A stretch of 64,000 bases of DNA from IMG/VR virus record IMGVR_UViG_3300025018_000138, positions 1-64,000 of that record; one strand, given 5' to 3'. This stretch comes from a virus (Duplodnaviria; Caudoviricetes). The position numbers and the translations under genes were made by a program. The notes below the pieces were generated by a model. That model was not told where the DNA came from. It did not search any database and saw only the letters and a list, made by a program, of their open reading frames with translations. Below are positions 2,680 through 41,752 of the stretch, piece by piece. Within the stretch, counting starts at the first letter, position 1; each line of letters opens with the position of its first letter.

Positions 2680-3893
2680 ATGTTATTTCATTTTTATTTT
2701 ATTTAAGTTTATCTTCACATGACATATACACACAAAATGTTAGCAATAATTATTCAAACAACTTACGAATATTGCGGAAAAACTTCTTTCTATCATATCT
2801 TTTCCACCACCCCTTTTTGAAGTATGCTTTATTACTTCCACCTCTACCAATAGGTTTTCCACAATCACCTTCTTCGTAATTGTGCCATTTCTCTGTCTTT
2901 GGTCTTGATATTTTCATTCTATTAATGTTTTTTTTTAAATTAAATTTTATTTTTTGCCTAAGTTAAGTATGATATATTTTATATGAACATAATGCTACGT
3001 TTATAACATCAATGTTATCGTCATCCATTAATCCTTTAATGGTTTCAATGTCTATTTCAATTTTTGAATGTCCGTAATATTTACAATTCTCGATTATAAC
3101 TTCTTCTGGTAGTGCATTAGCACACATCTTCTCTGCTACCGATTGACAGATGTCAAACAGTTGTTCTTCGGTATATAATTTCATAATTATTTCTTTTTAT
3201 ATTGTTTAAAACATAAAGGTATAATATCTCTAATTTTTTCATCAGACGTGATGTAGATGTTTTGGTTTTTAGTACCACCACCACCACAATTTTCAGTATA
3301 AAATGGGTCATTCGAAGTAAATCCAATACTTGGTTTATCCGTTGGTAGTATGTATATATTCTTATTCATTTTGATTTTAAATTTTCAATCTTAATACTTC
3401 AATAAAATAAGCATAAAATAGTGAAGAGTCAATTATTTTATTCTAATTTTAAATGATTGTTTAAATAATAAATCGATTAAGGTGAATAATTTTACGGTTT
3501 GTAAATAGGTTAATATGGGTAGTTTAAATATGGGTGCTATATCATTCCACAACCACATGATAGGAAAAGATAATATTATTGCAATTATTATTGCGTTAAT
3601 AAATATTAAAAAGAAATTTTTAGATTCTGTCATAAATTTTTATATTAAAAATTAATTGTTAATATAACATGAATATATGAACAAAATATATTAAAAACAA
3701 GCATTATTTTAAGTATTGTTTAAATATGCAATAGGATAAACAACCCAATTTTTTACCCACGTGGCTTTACCTTCAATATTTTCCTTTGCCCAACTTTTTG
3801 CCTTTTCGTCTGTAAGAAATGCAATTGGAGTTCCATTTTCAGATACAACATCATAAACGGGTTCTACTACTCGTCCCACTTTTATAATATACA

Positions 3894-23123: not shown

Positions 23124-23200
23124 TACCCACGACAAGATTCGAATCTTGTATGTATCCATTACACTTTCGACACGTTCGTAGCGTGAGGTGATACGTGGGC
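23124..23200 (-). tRNA. Non-canonical tRNA-Arg(ACG)-like gene, copy 1 (anticodon arm precedes D-like arm)
   Basis: GCCCACG/CGTGGGT acceptor; CACG-CTACGAA-CGTG anticodon arm; then GTGT-AATGGAT-ACAT; T arm ACAAG-ATTCGAAT-CTTGT. Confidence 0.75.
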
Positions 23201-23682: not shown

Positions 23683-23759
23683 TACCCACGACAAGATTCG
23701 AATCTTGTATGTATCCATTACACTTTCGACACGTTCGTAGCGTGAGGTGATACATGGGC
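23683..23759 (-). tRNA. Non-canonical tRNA-Arg(ACG)-like gene, copy 2
   Basis: Identical to copy 1 except C6>T, which gives a T-G pair in the acceptor stem. Confidence 0.75.
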
Positions 23760-24341: not shown

Positions 24342-24427
24342 CGGAAAGCACCATAGTTGAAATGGATGGCTTTGACACCACAATCTGTTTAGCAAACAGT
24401 TACAAGCACCTACTTGTTTTACTTTCC
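24342..24427 (-). tRNA. tRNA-Ser(GCT), atypical T arm
   Basis: GGAAAGT/GCTTTCC, loop TTGCTAA, long variable arm, T stem closes with T-A. Confidence 0.8.
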
Positions 24428-32787: not shown

Positions 32788-33429
32788 ATGATACTAATCG
32801 AACAACAGATTGATTCACAATCATTAGCTATGTTACTAAAATGTCGAACTCAATTGATTAATTTAATTAATTCATTCAAACCTTATTGTAATAATTATTT
32901 TTATATTTATGGTGGGTTTATACGAGATTTAATATCTGGGTTTAAACCAGTTGATATTGATATTAATATTGCCGACAGTAATGATAAAAATCGTGTTATT
33001 AAGTACCTATCCAAAACACATGATATTTCATATGAATCAGCTTGGGTAACTCGTTACAAGTCAAAAATGGGTTTACCAAAAACAATGTATGATATTGCAT
33101 CCAATTTTAAAACACCAACGGAATTTATATCAAATTCCGATTTTTCAAATAATGCTATATTATTTGATTCCAATTATGATTTGTTTTGTTTGGACTCGAC
33201 TATATATGCAAATACGAATAGAAAATTAATTTTAAAACCAATTGAATCTAATAGTCCTATGATTTTAGCATATAGAGCAGGTAAACTAATTCAAAAAGGG
33301 TTTGTATATAAATCCGAAAATCCTATAGACTTGATTAAAGATATAGAATATCAATTTGAACTATATACAAACCCAATCGATATTTATAAAGTTAATTTAT
33401 CCATTAACGATAGAAATGTATCACGTTGA
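32788..33429 (+). CDS. Class II nucleotidyltransferase head-domain protein
   Basis: YIYGGFIRDL, VDIDI, SDFSNNAI resemble CCA/poly(A) polymerase motifs. Confidence 0.6.
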   Translation: MILIEQQIDSQSLAMLLKCRTQLINLINSFKPYCNNYFYIYGGFIRDLISGFKPVDIDINIADSNDKNRVIKYLSKTHDISYESAWVTRYKSKMGLPKTMYDIASNFKTPTEFISNSDFSNNAILFDSNYDLFCLDSTIYANTNRKLILKPIESNSPMILAYRAGKLIQKGFVYKSENPIDLIKDIEYQFELYTNPIDIYKVNLSINDRNVSR

Positions 33430-34439
33430 AAATTTCCAATTTCAGCACCTACTAATGTTTTAGGATAATCAACTCCTAATGCTTTGTACAACAATTGTAC
33501 AATACTTACGAAAGATTCATCCAATTTACATAACATGTTAACATTGTTCATAACAACTCGTCTATTTTTCCAAATAAATAATTTTGACTCGTTTATATCA
33601 TCTACATAACTATCAATCATAATATAGTTACCATAAAATTTAGATACTTGAGCAACTTCTTTTTTGATTGGTAATGAATCAATGAATGAATCATCAAACA
33701 TACTAAATAAAAACGCAAATGAAGCATCAACATCATGGTCAATACACTCTTGAACTTCATCAATTCCCAACGATACGTCATCGATGAAACCTACATTATA
33801 TAATAATACTTTTGGGATGAAATTAAATGTAGTAATACATTTAGCAAATTCATCCAAGATTCTTTCCATTGATAATACTTTATCCAATTTAACAGTATCA
33901 AGAATTTTTTCAATTGCCAATTTAGTACTTGCATCAAATGTCAAACCATATTTAACATAGAATCTAAAGGCTCTAATCACCCGTAAATAATCTTCTTCAA
34001 ATCTGTGATACGGATTACCAACAGTTTTTAAAATATTATTTTCCAAATCTGATTGTCCATCAAACCAATCTAATATTTTTGTTCCATCAAAACCCATCGC
34101 ATTTATTGTAAAATCTCTACGTTGAGCATCTTCATAAAATGAATTGGTGAATTCTACTGTTGCACGTCTACCATCAGTACCCACATCTTTTCTAAATGTA
34201 GTATGTTCTACATGAACCCCGTGAATTATAAATGTGACCGTTCCATGCTCTATACCAGTATCATATGATGAAAAAGGTAATAAATCTTTAATTTCCAATG
34301 GTGTATATGCTGATGCTACATCGATATCATGTGCTTCACGATTGAGTAACATATCCCTTACACAACCACCAACAGCAATTACTTCGGGTGCATATTGATG
34401 AATGGCATGTAAAATTAATTCGATATTCGGGGTTGTCAT
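33384..34439 (-). CDS. cca: tRNA nucleotidyltransferase (CCA-adding enzyme)
   Basis: VGGCVRD, HDIDV, GIEHGTV, EDAQRRDFTINAM, EDYLRVIRAFRF. Confidence 0.9.
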   Translation of the reverse strand: MTTPNIELILHAIHQYAPEVIAVGGCVRDMLLNREAHDIDVASAYTPLEIKDLLPFSSYDTGIEHGTVTFIIHGVHVEHTTFRKDVGTDGRRATVEFTNSFYEDAQRRDFTINAMGFDGTKILDWFDGQSDLENNILKTVGNPYHRFEEDYLRVIRAFRFYVKYGLTFDASTKLAIEKILDTVKLDKVLSMERILDEFAKCITTFNFIPKVLLYNVGFIDDVSLGIDEVQECIDHDVDASFAFLFSMFDDSFIDSLPIKKEVAQVSKFYGNYIMIDSYVDDINESKLFIWKNRRVVMNNVNMLCKLDESFVSIVQLLYKALGVDYPKTLVGAEIGNFQRDTFLSLMDKLTL

Positions 34440-36556: not shown

Positions 36557-38230
36557 TTAAATAACAATCGCTTTAATATCGTTGAGTACTGCTTTTGGGT
36601 CAAACTCAACTTTTTTAATCAGTTCATAGATATCTTGTGTATATCCTTCGAGAGAAAACACACGTGGGTGTTTACTATTAAACATTTCTGTTGGATAACC
36701 ACAAACATTTATACTATAAACATAGGTATTACCATTCAGTTTTTCATATTCTTTAAAAGAATTTATTACCGAATCTTTACCTTGCATATCACTAATGATA
36801 AATACTCTATCATATCGTCCTTTTAATGATGGAAAGATAGTATCAAACGCAGTACCATAACCAACAGACCCTTGTTTTGATGCAATTACTTTTTTAATAG
36901 TATTTACAGAATCCAAAGGATTTATATTAATAGGTTGAGTATAGTTTGCAAAATGATATACATCTGCATTTGTAGCTTTCGCTAAAGTTGATGCAACCAA
37001 TGATGCTTTTTCGATTGCTGATTTACTACCTTGTTTTTTATTTGCTAAAGTAATCAAACTTGTCATAGAACCTGAGCTATCTAATACTACAGCAGTTTTA
37101 CCTGTGAAGTAATCTTCTAAATTTGGTATTGATAATTCATATGCTTTATTTAATGCAGTTAATATTGAACCTAAATCACTTGGGCTATGTTCTTGTAACA
37201 GAAACTCCAATGCCAAATCTATTTGGTGTGGAAACACTAATGATTTTTTGATAAATTCTGGTTCAATTAGTAAAGCAGATACTTTTTCTTTTAATGTACT
37301 ATGTCCAAGTTTAATGATATTGTTTAAGTTTCTTAACAATGCCAAGTACCCAATTTTTTTAGTATCAATTAGCTCTACAAAATTTTCACCCTTTAAATCA
37401 TCCAATTCAACTTTAGCTTGCTCAACACTTAATTCACCTGATGCCACTTTTGCAGAAACATCTTGACCCGATTTGGTGTTTTTATCTTCAACAGTATTGA
37501 ACTGTTTTAATAAACCTAACGTTAATGCAAACAATGTTGGGATAGTTACTTCTCCATCATCACTAATATTTCTTGTTAGTTTATGTGCTTGTTCTTCATA
37601 TAATACATGCCCTTTGACTGCTTTAAGTAATTTAGCTTTAGGTACAGATACTACTCCTTGAATTTCGGTTTCCCGTGGGTGTACTAACTTGACAATATTC
37701 AATAAAGAAATACTAGAAGTTTTCAATTGGTATTTAGCCAATTGGTATTTATCAGCATTTTCAATCACAGATTTGAATCCACGTTTGATAGCATTTGATA
37801 ATTTCTTACCGTTATTTAATGCCATATATGCACCTGCGATTTCCATCATATCATCTAAACGATATACAACTCCACCGCGATTTTCACCACGAACACGTTT
37901 AGTGAAGAAATGAGTTCCTAATTCGGTACCACTAAGATATCTAGCTAATACTGCTGATGCAAAATGTGTTGTTGCACGTTGTCCTACGACTGAACGTACA
38001 TAAACAATTGCTTTGGCTACCAATTCTTTATCACCAATTTTATCAATTAATGATAATATTCGTGCTTCTCTTGTTTCACTTGTTTCATAAAATGTATTAT
38101 CTACACCTGTAGCAAGAATTCCTACTAATTCTACGATTGGGTCTTTTGCAAAACCGTTTCCGTTTTCATATGTAGTTACATTTGGTTCTGCTTTAGTAGC
38201 AGATACTTGGTGTGAGTTATATTTTCCCAT
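36557..38230 (-). CDS. rsr: TROVE-domain Ro60/Rsr RNA-binding protein with C-terminal vWA domain
   Basis: TFYET, YQLAKY, YLALLRNLNNI, VVLDSSGSM MIDAS, FIISDMQ. Confidence 0.9.
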   Translation of the reverse strand: MGKYNSHQVSATKAEPNVTTYENGNGFAKDPIVELVGILATGVDNTFYETSETREARILSLIDKIGDKELVAKAIVYVRSVVGQRATTHFASAVLARYLSGTELGTHFFTKRVRGENRGGVVYRLDDMMEIAGAYMALNNGKKLSNAIKRGFKSVIENADKYQLAKYQLKTSSISLLNIVKLVHPRETEIQGVVSVPKAKLLKAVKGHVLYEEQAHKLTRNISDDGEVTIPTLFALTLGLLKQFNTVEDKNTKSGQDVSAKVASGELSVEQAKVELDDLKGENFVELIDTKKIGYLALLRNLNNIIKLGHSTLKEKVSALLIEPEFIKKSLVFPHQIDLALEFLLQEHSPSDLGSILTALNKAYELSIPNLEDYFTGKTAVVLDSSGSMTSLITLANKKQGSKSAIEKASLVASTLAKATNADVYHFANYTQPININPLDSVNTIKKVIASKQGSVGYGTAFDTIFPSLKGRYDRVFIISDMQGKDSVINSFKEYEKLNGNTYVYSINVCGYPTEMFNSKHPRVFSLEGYTQDIYELIKKVEFDPKAVLNDIKAIVI

Positions 38231-39688: not shown

Positions 39689-39699
39689 ATATAAAAATA

Positions 39700-39826
39700 T
39701 AAAGAAATATCAAAACAGAATTTTTAGCGCTCTACCATTGAGCTACATGTCCCCATAAGGGACATGGTTGGACTCGAACCAACAACCACTCGTTTCAATA
39801 CGATGAAACTGTTTTTGTCACTATTA
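39700..39826 (-). ncRNA. yrlA: Y-RNA-like ncRNA 2, YrlA-type (permuted tRNA module)
   Basis: Order: stem, T arm GTTGG-TTCGAGT-CCAAC, loop-closed acceptor CATGTCCC/GGGACATG, D arm GCTC-AATGGTA-GAGC, stem; matches published YrlA topology; near the Ro60 gene. Confidence 0.85.
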
Positions 39827-39835
39827 TATTTTTTG

Positions 39836-39916: not shown

Positions 39917-39989
39917 CGATGTTGATGGGATTCAAACCCACATAATCTTCGCTGACAACGAAGTGCATTAGTCATTATGCTACAACATC
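39917..39989 (-). tRNA. tRNA-Asp(GTC), T loop TTTGAAT
   Basis: GATGTTG/CAACATC, CTTCG-TTGTCAG-CGAAG. Confidence 0.88.
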
Positions 39990-40625
39990 ATTATGTTCAT
40001 GTTTTTCGTAGAATTTTATCCATTTTCTTATAGAATTATCTGAAACTCCATATTTTCTACCTGTAGCACTAAATCCTAATGATTTTGTGTCTTGTATTAA
40101 TATTTCATATGGTGGTCTGTTTCTTTTTCTATCTTTTTTTAATATTTCAATATTTATTTTTTTTTCTTTGAATGGGTTATTATTTTCATAATCATTTAAA
40201 TAATTTATTTTAAATTTTTCTTCATTTACTCTAATTGCTGTTTTATTTTCAATATCAGATGTAGATAAGAAAAAAATACCACCGCTTTTTACTACAATAA
40301 TAATATAATCTATTTTATTTTTATCAAAATATTTTCGTGTATTATTATATTTATTACCACCGCTAGTTGCAAGTGTTACTATCCAATTATTATTTTTATA
40401 AACACTTGTTGATTTGACTTGAACTTTTAGTAAGCAATTATCTTTTTCAATAATAAAATCATACGATTGATTTTCGTTTAATGGTTTAGATACTGTGTAT
40501 CCTTCTTTTATTAAGAAAGCTAAAGCGTATGCTTCACCAACATTACCTTTATCTTTTTGGGTTTTACAATTTTCAAATATATTCATGATATTAATTATAA
40601 TATATTTTATATTTTTGAACCCCAA
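39975..40625 (-). CDS. Free-standing PD-(D/E)XK endonuclease (group I intron-associated type) with C-terminal HTH
   Basis: KGNVGEAYA, QSYDFIIEK, KVQVKS; HTH GVSDNSIRKW. Confidence 0.8.
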   Translation of the reverse strand: MGFKNIKYIIINIMNIFENCKTQKDKGNVGEAYALAFLIKEGYTVSKPLNENQSYDFIIEKDNCLLKVQVKSTSVYKNNNWIVTLATSGGNKYNNTRKYFDKNKIDYIIIVVKSGGIFFLSTSDIENKTAIRVNEEKFKINYLNDYENNNPFKEKKINIEILKKDRKRNRPPYEILIQDTKSLGFSATGRKYGVSDNSIRKWIKFYEKHEHNDVVA

Positions 40626-40647: not shown

Positions 40648-40734
40648 TGCGGTTCGAAAGATTCGAACTTTACGCCACCAACCCCACTTAGTTTTTGACA
40701 ACAGTTTTACAGACTGCCGTGGGGAACGAACCGC
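40648..40734 (-). tRNA. Non-canonical tRNA-Tyr(GTA)-like gene (anticodon arm precedes D-like segment; 8/4 acceptor/T)
   Basis: GCGGTTCG/CGAACCGC, GCAGT-CTGTAAA-ACTGT, then AAC-TAAGTGGG-GTT, T arm AAAG-TTCGAAT-CTTT, A73. Confidence 0.75.
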
Positions 40735-40743
40735 AAATAAAAA

Positions 40744-40887
40744 CAAAGAAATTTATAATCAGTTGACCAACATTTCAACCCCCGTACTAATACTAATTAT
40801 ATTAACATTAGTACGGGGGGCAGGAATTGAACCTACGTTATAGCAAAGCATGATTTTGTACGAAGTATCTGATTTATTACGCTATTG
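40744..40887 (-). ncRNA. Y-RNA-like ncRNA 3, YrlA-type with extended closed acceptor
   Basis: T arm GTAGG-TTCAATT-CCTGC, 13-bp CCCCCGTACTAAT/ATTAGTACGGGGG, D-like TTGA-AATGTTGG-TCAA; family terminal motif. Confidence 0.75.
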
Positions 40888-40893
40888 TTTTTG

Positions 40894-41136: not shown

Positions 41137-41148
41137 ATAATAAAATAA

Positions 41149-41270
41149 AAGGAGAAATATAAAAAGTGTGTTCCTCTTACGAGGTCGAGTGGAATTGAAC
41201 CACTGAAGTTTATTTTCAAGATAAATGCCCAACCATTGAGCTACGATGTAACACTTTTAAACGCTACCTT
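41149..41270 (-). ncRNA. Y-RNA-like ncRNA 5 enclosing unpermuted D, anticodon(TGA) and T arms
   Basis: Family stem AAAAGTGT/ACACTTTT; GCTC-AATGGTT-GGGC; TTTAT-CTTGAAA-ATAAA; AGTGG-TTCAATT-CCACT; only 3 bp of acceptor, then CCTC-GTAA-GAGG. Confidence 0.7.
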
Positions 41271-41275
41271 TTTTG

Positions 41276-41348
41276 AGCTTTCATTGGGAATCGAACCCAC
41301 TTCCTCGCTTTACAAGAGCGAACATCATCCAATAAATGTTTTGAAAGC
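41276..41348 (-). tRNA. tRNA-Thr(TGT)
   Basis: GCTTTCA/TGAAAGC, TCGCT-CTTGTAA-AGCGA. Confidence 0.9.
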
Positions 41349-41752
41349 TATTTTCTAGTTGTTCTAGAAGATTTTCTATTATTTATATTTTTGTACGTTT
41401 TGGTTAAAGAGTGACAATTCGGACATAATAATCTTAGATTTTCTCGCAAATTATTTTTAGCATCTCCATCTATATGGTCAATCTCTAATGGTATATTACC
41501 CGTAAATTCATTTATTTGTGACCAACCACATAATGAACATTTATTATCATTTTCTTCTAATAAAAATTTTCTTATCCAATTAGGAATGGTCAATCCATTA
41601 CCACGTAGATAATTTTTACCATTTAACCACATATTAATACGTTGATTCATTTGAAATTCTTGTTGACATTTATTATTACAAAAAATGTTATTATTAACAA
41701 TTTCATTATTACAAAATTTACAAGTTTTTTCCTTTTTTTCTCTTTTTCTCAT
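41348..41752 (-). CDS. Free-standing HNH endonuclease
   Basis: CSLCGW, LEIDHIDGD, NLRLLCPNCHS. Confidence 0.9.
   Translation of the reverse strand: MRKREKKEKTCKFCNNEIVNNNIFCNNKCQQEFQMNQRINMWLNGKNYLRGNGLTIPNWIRKFLLEENDNKCSLCGWSQINEFTGNIPLEIDHIDGDAKNNLRENLRLLCPNCHSLTKTYKNINNRKSSRTTRK

Follow-up and report, generated by a model that had tools for sequence, protein, structure and literature searches.

A putative phage tRNA-Tyr(GUA) with a pseudoknotted, non-cloverleaf fold and its relatives in phages and mobile bacterial tRNA arrays

The window analysed here is the stretch of 64,000 nt that forms positions 1 to 64,000 of the viral record IMGVR_UViG_3300025018_000138. Its minus strand carries a block of tRNA arrays, in which ORFs for PD-(D/E)XK and HNH nucleases and genes for TROVE/Ro60, HD and metallophosphoesterase proteins are interspersed. 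A PolyA_pol-head nucleotidyltransferase gene, putatively encoding a CCA-adding enzyme, is found in the same block. ARAGORN identified 25 tRNAs on the minus strand, covering 19 amino acids, with no tRNA-Tyr among them; the result is the same for the window and for the full 74,815-bp contig (27.9% GC). An 8/4-type Ser(GCU) gene is also present in the window. Tyrosine codons (TAT plus TAC) amount to 53.8 per 1000 (5.4%) in the long ORFs of the phage.

Within this block lies an element with a tyrosine anticodon, the features of which are given in Table 1. The sequence quoted for it in the original prediction is the exact reverse complement of the window at this locus. Read 5′ to 3′ on the minus strand, its segments are GCGGTTCG - TT - CCCCAC - G - GCAGT-CTGTAAA-ACTGT - TGTCA - AAAACTAA - GTGGGG - TTGG - TGGCG - T - AAAG-TTCGAAT-CTTT - CGAACCGC - A. 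Nine nucleotides (UU CCCCAC G) make up the whole spacer between the acceptor and anticodon stems, and the D arm is therefore absent from the 5′ side of the anticodon arm, as had been predicted. Two further elements listed in Table 1 were considered as permuted tRNAs. They were rejected as such, as in each the acceptor forms a closed hairpin with T and D arms on either side and a TROVE/Ro60 gene lies beside them; they fit YrlA-type Y RNAs serving Ro60 and are separate from the Tyr finding.

Table 1. Features of the Tyr gene and of its neighbourhood, in window positions.
Feature	Position	Strand	Remarks
Tyr tRNA element, 87 nt	40734..40648	-	
Acceptor stem, 5′ strand GCGGUUCG, 8 nt	40727..40734	-	Pairs with 40649-40656, perfectly in the window copy
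UU connector, in place of nt 8-9	40725..40726	-	TT in nearly all relatives, TC in two; fixed by the search pattern for most relatives
P helix, 5′ strand CCCCAC (putative equivalent of the D-stem 3′ strand)	40719..40724	-	Pairs with 40682-40687
Lone G between P and anticodon stem (putative equivalent of nt 26)	40718	-	One nt in all relatives
Anticodon arm GCAGU-CUGUAAA-ACUGU, anticodon GUA (Tyr)	40701..40717	-	5-bp stem; loop with U33 and A37
V helix, 5′ strand UGUCA, directly 3′ of the anticodon stem	40696..40700	-	Pairs with 40673-40677
L2, A-rich loop AAAACUAA, between V 5′ strand and P 3′ strand	40688..40695	-	5-11 nt and 55% A across relatives
P helix, 3′ strand GUGGGG (putative equivalent of the D-stem 5′ strand)	40682..40687	-	Within the V hairpin loop (pseudoknot)
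L3, UUGG (putative D-loop equivalent, with GG)	40678..40681	-	L3/T-loop association among relatives
V helix, 3′ strand UGGCG	40673..40677	-	Pairs with the V 5′ strand
Junction U, then T arm AAAG-UUCGAAU-CUUU	40657..40672	-	4-bp stem, 7-nt loop
Acceptor stem, 3′ strand CGAACCGC	40649..40656	-	Covariation
Discriminator A73	40648	-	Window copy without encoded CCA
Candidate YrlA-type Y RNA	39689-39834		
Candidate YrlA-type Y RNA	40735-40892		
PolyA_pol-head nucleotidyltransferase (putative CCA-adding enzyme)	33384-34439	-	Same block as the tRNA arrays

Standard tools miss this gene. The intron, low-threshold and mitochondrial modes of ARAGORN gave no correct model at the Tyr element, ps80 returning one spurious call only, and the Rfam tRNA model RF00005, which has a family threshold of 29 bits, showed no match at the locus even at E<=10. 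RNAfold alone recovers the acceptor stem and P; V and the T arm are not shown because of the pseudoknot. The gene had been put forward as the only tRNA-Tyr, completing the set for 20 amino acids. This holds for the contig, where the other 19 amino acids are served by canonical tRNAs and ARAGORN finds no further Tyr gene. It does not extend to the whole phage, since the contig is a linear viral fragment which CheckV estimates to be 36% complete, and the remainder of the genome could hold a canonical tRNA-Tyr.

Relatives of the gene amount to more than 110 distinct sequences from phages and mobile bacterial tRNA arrays; viral contigs account for about 70 of them, long tRNA arrays of Planctomycetota chromosomes for about 48, and a cultured Pseudomonas phage for one. 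An exact match to the 23-nt core was found in one 343-kb viral contig. The pattern CCCCAC-N6-CTGTAAA-N13-28-GTGGGG was matched by 21 viral stretches, 19 of which are clearly the same gene (14 distinct). A pattern that did not force complementarity of the P strands (TTCC-YYRY-N6-CTGTAAA-N5-YG-N6-21-RYRR-GG) was matched by 92 stretches; the P strands were complementary in all of the ~64 distinct matches with tRNA-like acceptor pairing and in neither of the two matches without it. These retrieval patterns were anchored on CTGTAAA and on the CC....GG of P, so that part of the constancy seen in the anticodon loop and in the two outer P pairs is built into the search. A covariance model (R1) built on the Tyr element scored 93.7 bits on the window and 48-97 bits on 69 other distinct sequences. 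BLAST analysis revealed one cultured carrier, the 45-kb Pseudomonas phage Rembedalsseter (PQ464593.1), whose copy is unannotated, is the only tRNA-like gene of the phage and scores 26.3 bits with Rfam, which is below threshold; a CCCTAC-type member had no BLAST match among GenBank phages. Among the public runs matching the gene no RNA runs were listed, the DNA runs being aquifer, groundwater and spring metagenomes, and no variant letters were seen over the gene in contigs of four public runs.

When one genome per prokaryotic species was scanned, 58 stretches matched; 54 of these were true copies, nearly all of them on Planctomycetota chromosomes. Here the gene occupies a fixed slot, Leu(CAA) - odd Tyr gene - Glu(CUC), in arrays of 20-38 tRNAs, and it is present in 7 of the 151 Planctomycetota genomes sampled. 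That these copies are the housekeeping tRNA-Tyr was rejected on the basis of this sporadic occurrence and of a canonical Tyr gene located in a Thr-Tyr-Gly-Thr cluster. The odd gene is thus accessory in Planctomycetota, where translation need not draw on it. Horizontally spread 'L-arrays' have been described for several phyla including Planctomycetota (PMC8421152), and the sporadic, accessory distribution seen here matches that description. Arrays of 17-37 tRNAs around the odd gene are otherwise devoid of Tyr, with a separate canonical Tyr gene in only 8 of 96 loci. Phages that have the same Ro60 gene mostly carry an ordinary class II tRNA-Tyr, and therefore the odd gene is no lineage-wide default.

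The fold of the gene emerges from an alignment of 70 distinct sequences. The covariance model was derived from nested helices only, and the sequences were realigned and the pairs counted with P written as a pseudoknot. Overall, 96.3% of cells were paired, compared with 74.2% in shuffles and 38-56% for slid partners. Changes on both sides were seen at 21 of the 27 pairs (shuffled mean 16.6), and the covariation score was 0.616, as against 0.18 in shuffles and <=0.14 for slid partners. None of 500 shuffles equalled the observed pairing, both-side changes or covariation score. By helix, both-side changes occur at 8 of 8 pairs of the acceptor helix (97.9% of cells paired), at 4 of 6 pairs of P (98.3%), where the two outer pairs are fixed by the pattern, at 4 of 5 pairs of the anticodon stem (98.6%), at 2 of 4 pairs of V, with one-side changes at 2 more (97.9%), and at 3 of 4 pairs of the T stem (85.7%). 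A covariance search had been suggested along with the original prediction; the helices covary across the 69 other distinct sequences scored by the model, which bears out the claim of a real, conserved tRNA-like gene.

P is found as CCCTAC/GTAGGG, CCCTGC/GCAGGG, CCTTAC/GTAAGG, CCCTAT/ATAGGG, CCTCAT/ATGAGG, CCTTGC/GCAAGG and CCCCGC/GCGGGG, and moreover with the transversions CCCCTC/GAGGGG and CCCCCC/GGGGGG in copies that were retrieved by the model and not by a pattern. The pairing of CCCCAC with GTGGGG, originally offered as one of two possible folds, is upheld by these changes. V is found as TGGC/GCCG, TGTC/GACG, CGTC/GACG, TGAC/GTCA, TGCT/AGCG and CGCC/GGCG; in the first 15 sequences tabulated by segment, it is 4-8 bp long, starts directly after the anticodon stem and stops 1-2 nt before the T stem. 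The GUGGGG strand is enclosed by V and pairs outside it with CCCCAC, and therefore P and V cross and form a pseudoknot. The acceptor and T stems (8 + 4) form a 12-bp stack, equal in length to that of 7+5 tRNAs, that is kept in all relatives. As read from the alignment, then, the fold is not a cloverleaf and consists of five covarying helices, two of which (P and V) cross. The initial description of the gene as 'arm-swapped', in the sense of an exchange of whole hairpins, is not supported; what is conserved instead is P together with a crossing helix V (UGUC.../...GGCG) that had been missed.

Bacterial tRNA-Tyr is a class II tRNA with a long variable arm. V is found at the site of this arm and is therefore read as its probable stand-in. 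P, which is joined to the anticodon stem through one nucleotide, would be the equivalent of the D stem, and the short GG loop that follows it, L3, would be the equivalent of the D loop, docking on the T loop as the elbow. L3 reads YGG in 57 relatives with the T loop UUC (UUCRAYU) and UAGU in 7 of 7 relatives with the T loop YGC (YGCRAKU), although these seven possibly represent few independent lineages. Such an association is the pattern expected if L3 plays the part of G18-G19 against positions 55-56. On paper, the 5′ strand of P runs into the anticodon stem via one nucleotide in the manner of 22-25/26/27, and the chain exits P at the elbow end in the manner of 13-14. An L-like shape could be kept in this way with an altered strand connectivity.

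The two Arg(ACG) genes of the window have a related arrangement, acceptor(7)-UA-UCAC-C-(anticodon arm)-CGAAA-GUGU-AAUGGAUA-CAU-(T arm), in which AAUGGAUA is exactly the D loop of the canonical Arg(UCU) of the phage, GUAC-AAUGGAUA-GUAC. No relatives were found with an exact-like pattern for Arg(ACG); a degenerate, looser pattern recovered 13. In these 13 the P helix covaries and is then followed by AAUGGAYA, the D loop of canonical Arg(UCU). The 3-bp core of UCAC/GUGU is replaced by ACC/GGU, ACU/AGU, CCC/GGG, UCC/GGA, CAG/CUG and CGG/CCG, and the end pair, at the 13.22 position, is usually a mismatch, mostly U.U. The Arg(ACG) genes keep P and the D loop and have no V helix. That P is followed by the D loop of a canonical tRNA supports its reading as the D stem. 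The suggestion that Tyr and Arg(ACG) share a common logic is also strengthened, as the CAC/GTG helix of Arg(ACG) covaries across the 13 relatives. Moreover, the full P+V layout is seen in one Arg(UCU) gene, on a viral contig of 176 kb; an anticodon-blind descriptor scan of ~2.2 Mb otherwise found this layout only with GUA. The arrangement is best and most simply described as an apparent transfer of the D-stem 5′ strand and the D loop from before the anticodon arm to a place 3′ of it, which in Tyr is the variable-arm loop.

Taken together, the comparative evidence indicates that the element is probably a working tRNA-Tyr(GUA) gene whose RNA is not a cloverleaf. A73 is present in 70 of 70 sequences and was imposed by no search pattern, CCA is encoded after it in most phage copies and G1-C72 is found in 67 of 70. 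The anticodon of the window copy is G34 U35 A36, which in the relatives was set by the search pattern. The gene has the canonical 5-bp anticodon stem, the 7-nt loop with U33 and R37 and the T loop UUCRANY, and at the position of the long variable arm it has a covarying hairpin stem, V, with a loop tied up in P. The 12-bp acceptor/T helix, the part recognised by RNase P, CCA enzymes and EF-Tu, is intact. Departures from the canonical cloverleaf are the missing 5′ D arm, the Rfam score and an acceptor and T stem that are not of 7 and 5 bp. The gene is not permuted; the acceptor strands form its two ends, and in relatives the 3′ terminus carries A73-CCA. The Tyr transcript would be excised from the minus-strand tRNA array, receive its CCA from the phage's own nucleotidyltransferase, be charged by host TyrRS via A73, G34/U35 and the V arm, and decode UAU and UAC. 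The E. coli translation machinery is known to take a D-arm-less tRNA without adaptation (PMC11551756).

As for the reason behind the shape, one reading involves nucleases directed at tRNA-Tyr. The sites at which retron-Eco7 and Septu PtuAB cleave the tRNA-Tyr of E. coli lie in the variable loop/stem, between U47 and C48 or at C48/A49, and the tRNA-Tyr of T5-like phages is uncut by PtuAB, its variable loop being needed for counter-defence (PMC13096335, PMC12673091, PMC11555353). The variable arm targeted by PtuAB is the region that has been rebuilt in the odd Tyr family. The remodelled variable-arm/D region may thus no longer be a substrate for tRNA-Tyr nucleases such as PtuAB of Septu or of retron-Eco7. 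By analogy with this literature nuclease resistance is a plausible reading. Evasion of a tRNA-Tyr-directed nuclease as the reason for the shape is the weakest step of the explanation, and we put it forward tentatively. In the same speculative vein, the fold might be a topological isomer of the cloverleaf that occurs in nature and was favoured by selection in three or more anticodon families, because it would keep charging and decoding and be invisible to immune nucleases that read the D/variable region (e.g. PtuAB).

A serious contender, to which we would give a little less than an even chance, is that the molecule is a working tRNA-Tyr whose topology brings no advantage, having arisen once in a mobile array, been tolerated by a permissive bacterial translation machinery, spread with phages and arrays, and then stayed under purifying selection as other tRNAs do. 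The gene does travel with similar arrays in phages and in Planctomycetota, where its slot is fixed, its sporadic presence in the latter fits horizontal spread, and the acceptance of a D-arm-less tRNA by E. coli indicates that such a molecule could be tolerated. However, the same kind of transposition is shared by Tyr GUA, Arg ACG and a single Arg UCU gene, three anticodon families in all, which points to repeated origin or to selection. Moreover, unless the odd gene brought a specific benefit, its presence as the sole tRNA of a 45-kb phage would be difficult to account for.

It is unlikely that the RNA is no adaptor and instead serves as a tRNA mimic or decoy, titrating a tRNA-Tyr nuclease, TyrRS or another host factor. 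Overexpressed tRNA-Tyr is able to neutralise PtuAB toxicity (PMC12673091), and the tRNA-like candidate Y RNAs beside the Ro60 gene of the window suggest that tRNA mimicry is already used by the phage. However, where a tRNA set is complete but for Tyr, it is this gene that takes the Tyr place, and it has kept A73, often CCA, a standard anticodon loop and an acceptor/T helix that is open and 12 bp long, which a decoy need not have all together. The probability that is left for the shape falls to other selective reasons or to such a decoy role.

The fold named first in the original prediction, with a D-like hairpin, AAC-TAAGTGGG-GTT (AAC-UAAGUGGG-GUU in the RNA), placed after the anticodon arm and with CCCCAC single-stranded, is now very improbable. 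The window copy does allow this hairpin, with a GG in the loop, but its three pairs are formed in 40.8% of cells across the 70 relatives against 38.6% in shuffles, with no covariation signal, and the same nucleotides are explained by P and V with strong covariation. The analogous hairpin GUGU/ACAU drawn for Arg(ACG) was likewise rejected, being lost in the relatives L274 and L294, where P is kept by double changes. Decay to a pseudogene, or a chance resemblance to a tRNA, as rejection by standard tRNA finders might suggest, has a negligible probability given more than 110 distinct relatives and compensatory changes in all five helices.

The preferred reading, a working tRNA-Tyr with a crossing P and V, can be set beside several known systems. 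The gene resembles bacterial class II tRNA-Tyr, including those of phages T5 and SP15, in its GUA anticodon, A73, the mostly G1-C72 pair and a hairpin between the anticodon and T arms. The T5 and SP15 genes are likewise phage-borne within tRNA arrays, and the class II variable arm is the site of PtuAB attack and of phage escape (PMC13096335, PMC12673091). Unlike these, the odd gene has no 5′ D hairpin, the loop of its variable arm provides one D-stem-like strand, its stems are 8/4 and not 7/5, and it is missed by Rfam and ARAGORN. The (8/4) tRNAs of Mukai et al. 2017 (PMC5389517) share the 8-bp acceptor and 4-bp T stem, the 12-bp branch and an occurrence in phage clusters; however, they are Ser, His, Cys, Sec and allo-tRNAs, cloverleaves with a 5′ D arm, and no Tyr member or pseudoknot was described among them.

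Two further groups lack or rearrange parts of the cloverleaf. Mitochondrial tRNAs without a D arm (e.g. mt tRNA-Ser(AGY)) and the engineered mini HisT also have no hairpin between the acceptor and anticodon stems and function in translation. In these a short unpaired connector is found and the D/T elbow is lost, whereas the odd Tyr gene, of phage and bacterial origin, has a covarying 6-bp helix and a GG loop contributed from the 3′ side. Circularly permuted tRNA genes, as in Cyanidioschyzon merolae, similarly have tRNA parts in a non-standard gene order. However, their transcripts are processed back to a cloverleaf, whereas the ends of the odd Tyr gene are normal acceptor ends and its rearrangement is internal and permanent. 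YrlA-type Y RNAs are made of reordered tRNA parts as well, and a YrlA-like permuted module lies within 200 nt of the Tyr gene; in YrlA, however, the acceptor stem is closed by a loop and a Ro60-binding terminal stem is present, whereas the acceptor of the odd Tyr gene is open.

A prior description of a pseudoknotted Tyr fold was not found in the literature searched, in which coverage of subscription journals is thin and an earlier report possible. A 2020 review of non-canonical tRNAs contains no pseudoknotted or phage Tyr case (PMC7609411). Moreover, according to a 2024 paper, every bacterial tRNA known is a cloverleaf, and arm length is the sole structural variable in cytosolic tRNAs (PMC11551756). 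What appears to be new here is a secondary-structure topology for a tRNA, and with more than 110 distinct sequences and strong covariation the family would be a natural exception to the all-cloverleaf statement. Since tRNA finders are blind to the family, the tRNA sets of phages and arrays are wrongly called Tyr-less and sometimes Arg-ACG-less. The member in a cultured 45-kb Pseudomonas phage makes fold, charging and benefit directly testable. The remodelled region is exactly the region in which PtuAB cuts tRNA-Tyr, which yields a concrete counter-defence hypothesis, and the scaffold may serve as an orthogonal or nuclease-proof tRNA chassis.

Seven of the pseudoknotted tRNA-Tyr members in alignment A3 (70 distinct sequences), those of contigs L077, L079, L069, L134, L114, L125 and L087, carry YGC in place of UUC in the T loop. 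In all seven, the YGG of the loop following helix P, formed by the 5′ connector and the equivalent of the D-stem 5′ strand, is replaced by UAGU. This joint change suggests an 18:55-like tertiary covariation. The only non-GUA anticodon found with both P and helix V (at the variable-arm position, crossing P) was an Arg(UCU) gene on a 176-kb viral contig, L078, with P formed by CCUGGU/ACUGGG and G as discriminator.

Both Arg(ACG) copies in the window also lack a 5′ D arm and follow the layout acceptor(7)-UA-UCAC-C-anticodon arm-CGAAA-GUGU-AAUGGAUA-CAU-T arm. The D strand and D loop are transposed as in the pseudoknotted tRNA-Tyr, but without helix V. In 13 viral relatives (the six loci tabulated and others), the 5′ connector keeps a covarying 3-bp pairing with the nucleotides preceding AAUGG, and this helix usually ends in a terminal U.U mismatch. 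A GUGU/ACAU hairpin is not conserved among the relatives.

Coordinates of tRNA genes, tRNA-like elements and associated ORFs in the window and in related contigs (L-numbers)
Feature	Location	Strand
TROVE/Ro60 ORF	window 36557-38230	-
tRNA-like element	window 39689-39834	-
tRNA-like element	window 40735-40892	-
tRNA-like element	window 41137-41274	-
PD-(D/E)XK nuclease ORF	window 39975-40625	-
HNH nuclease ORF	window 41348-41752	-
Arg(ACG) copy 1	window 23684-23759	-
Arg(ACG) copy 2	window 23125-23200	-
Ser(GCU)	window 24343-24427	-
Arg(UCU)	L078:7010-7095	-
Arg(ACG) relative	L274:2352-2427	
Arg(ACG) relative	L294:2064-2139	
Arg(ACG) relative	L285:3066-3142	
Arg(ACG) relative	L318:974-1050	
Arg(ACG) relative	L305:861-939	
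Arg(ACG) relative	L319:11029-11106	
Short Tyr(GTA)	L014:~3460-3530	
Short Tyr(GTA)	L027:5214-5281	
Short Tyr(GTA)	L051:1920-1989	
Short Tyr(GTA)	L052:1070-1139	
Short Tyr(GTA)	L066:1919-1986	
Short Tyr(GTA)	L042:~690-760	
Short Tyr(GTA)	L050	
Short Tyr(GTA)	L058	
tRNA array, Lacipirellula limnantheis I41 chromosome	L206:about 5,955,540-5,960,640	

ARAGORN made no call for the window's 8/4-type Ser(GCU) tRNA, which has a long D stem and relatives in L001, L002, L010 and L015, nor for any of the short Tyr(GTA) genes tabulated. The latter are about 68-70 nt where full length was determined; their variable loop is short, and their D region is odd, containing YCAGGG in most. Some adjoin a canonical class II Tyr. 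They constitute a third kind among unusual phage tRNA-Tyr.

In arrays of 20-38 tRNA genes on Planctomycetota chromosomes (L169-L226), gene order is conserved as Phe-Glu-Pro-Ile-Lys-Lys-Thr-Gly-Pro-Asn-Gly-Gln-Gln-Ser-Val-Asp-Leu-[pseudoknotted Tyr]-Glu-Leu-Met-Leu-Ala-Ser-Arg-His-Trp-Arg..., and the housekeeping Tyr is canonical and located outside the array.

CheckV puts completeness of the viral record at 36%; beyond the window, the contig terminus (positions 74520-74750 of the whole contig) is of low complexity, a long repeat of the (TA)n / ATATAA type. Within the window, the three tRNA-like elements upstream of the TROVE/Ro60 gene look like YrlA-type Y RNAs. Two have a permuted form (T arm, loop-closed acceptor, D arm and paired flanks). 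In the third the tRNA body is unpermuted, its anticodon reads UGA, its acceptor stem has 3 bp, and there is one additional hairpin. The PD-(D/E)XK and HNH ORFs, each flanked by tRNA genes, look like homing endonucleases, resembling the kind represented by SegB of T6, which reportedly amplifies tRNA-Tyr loci.
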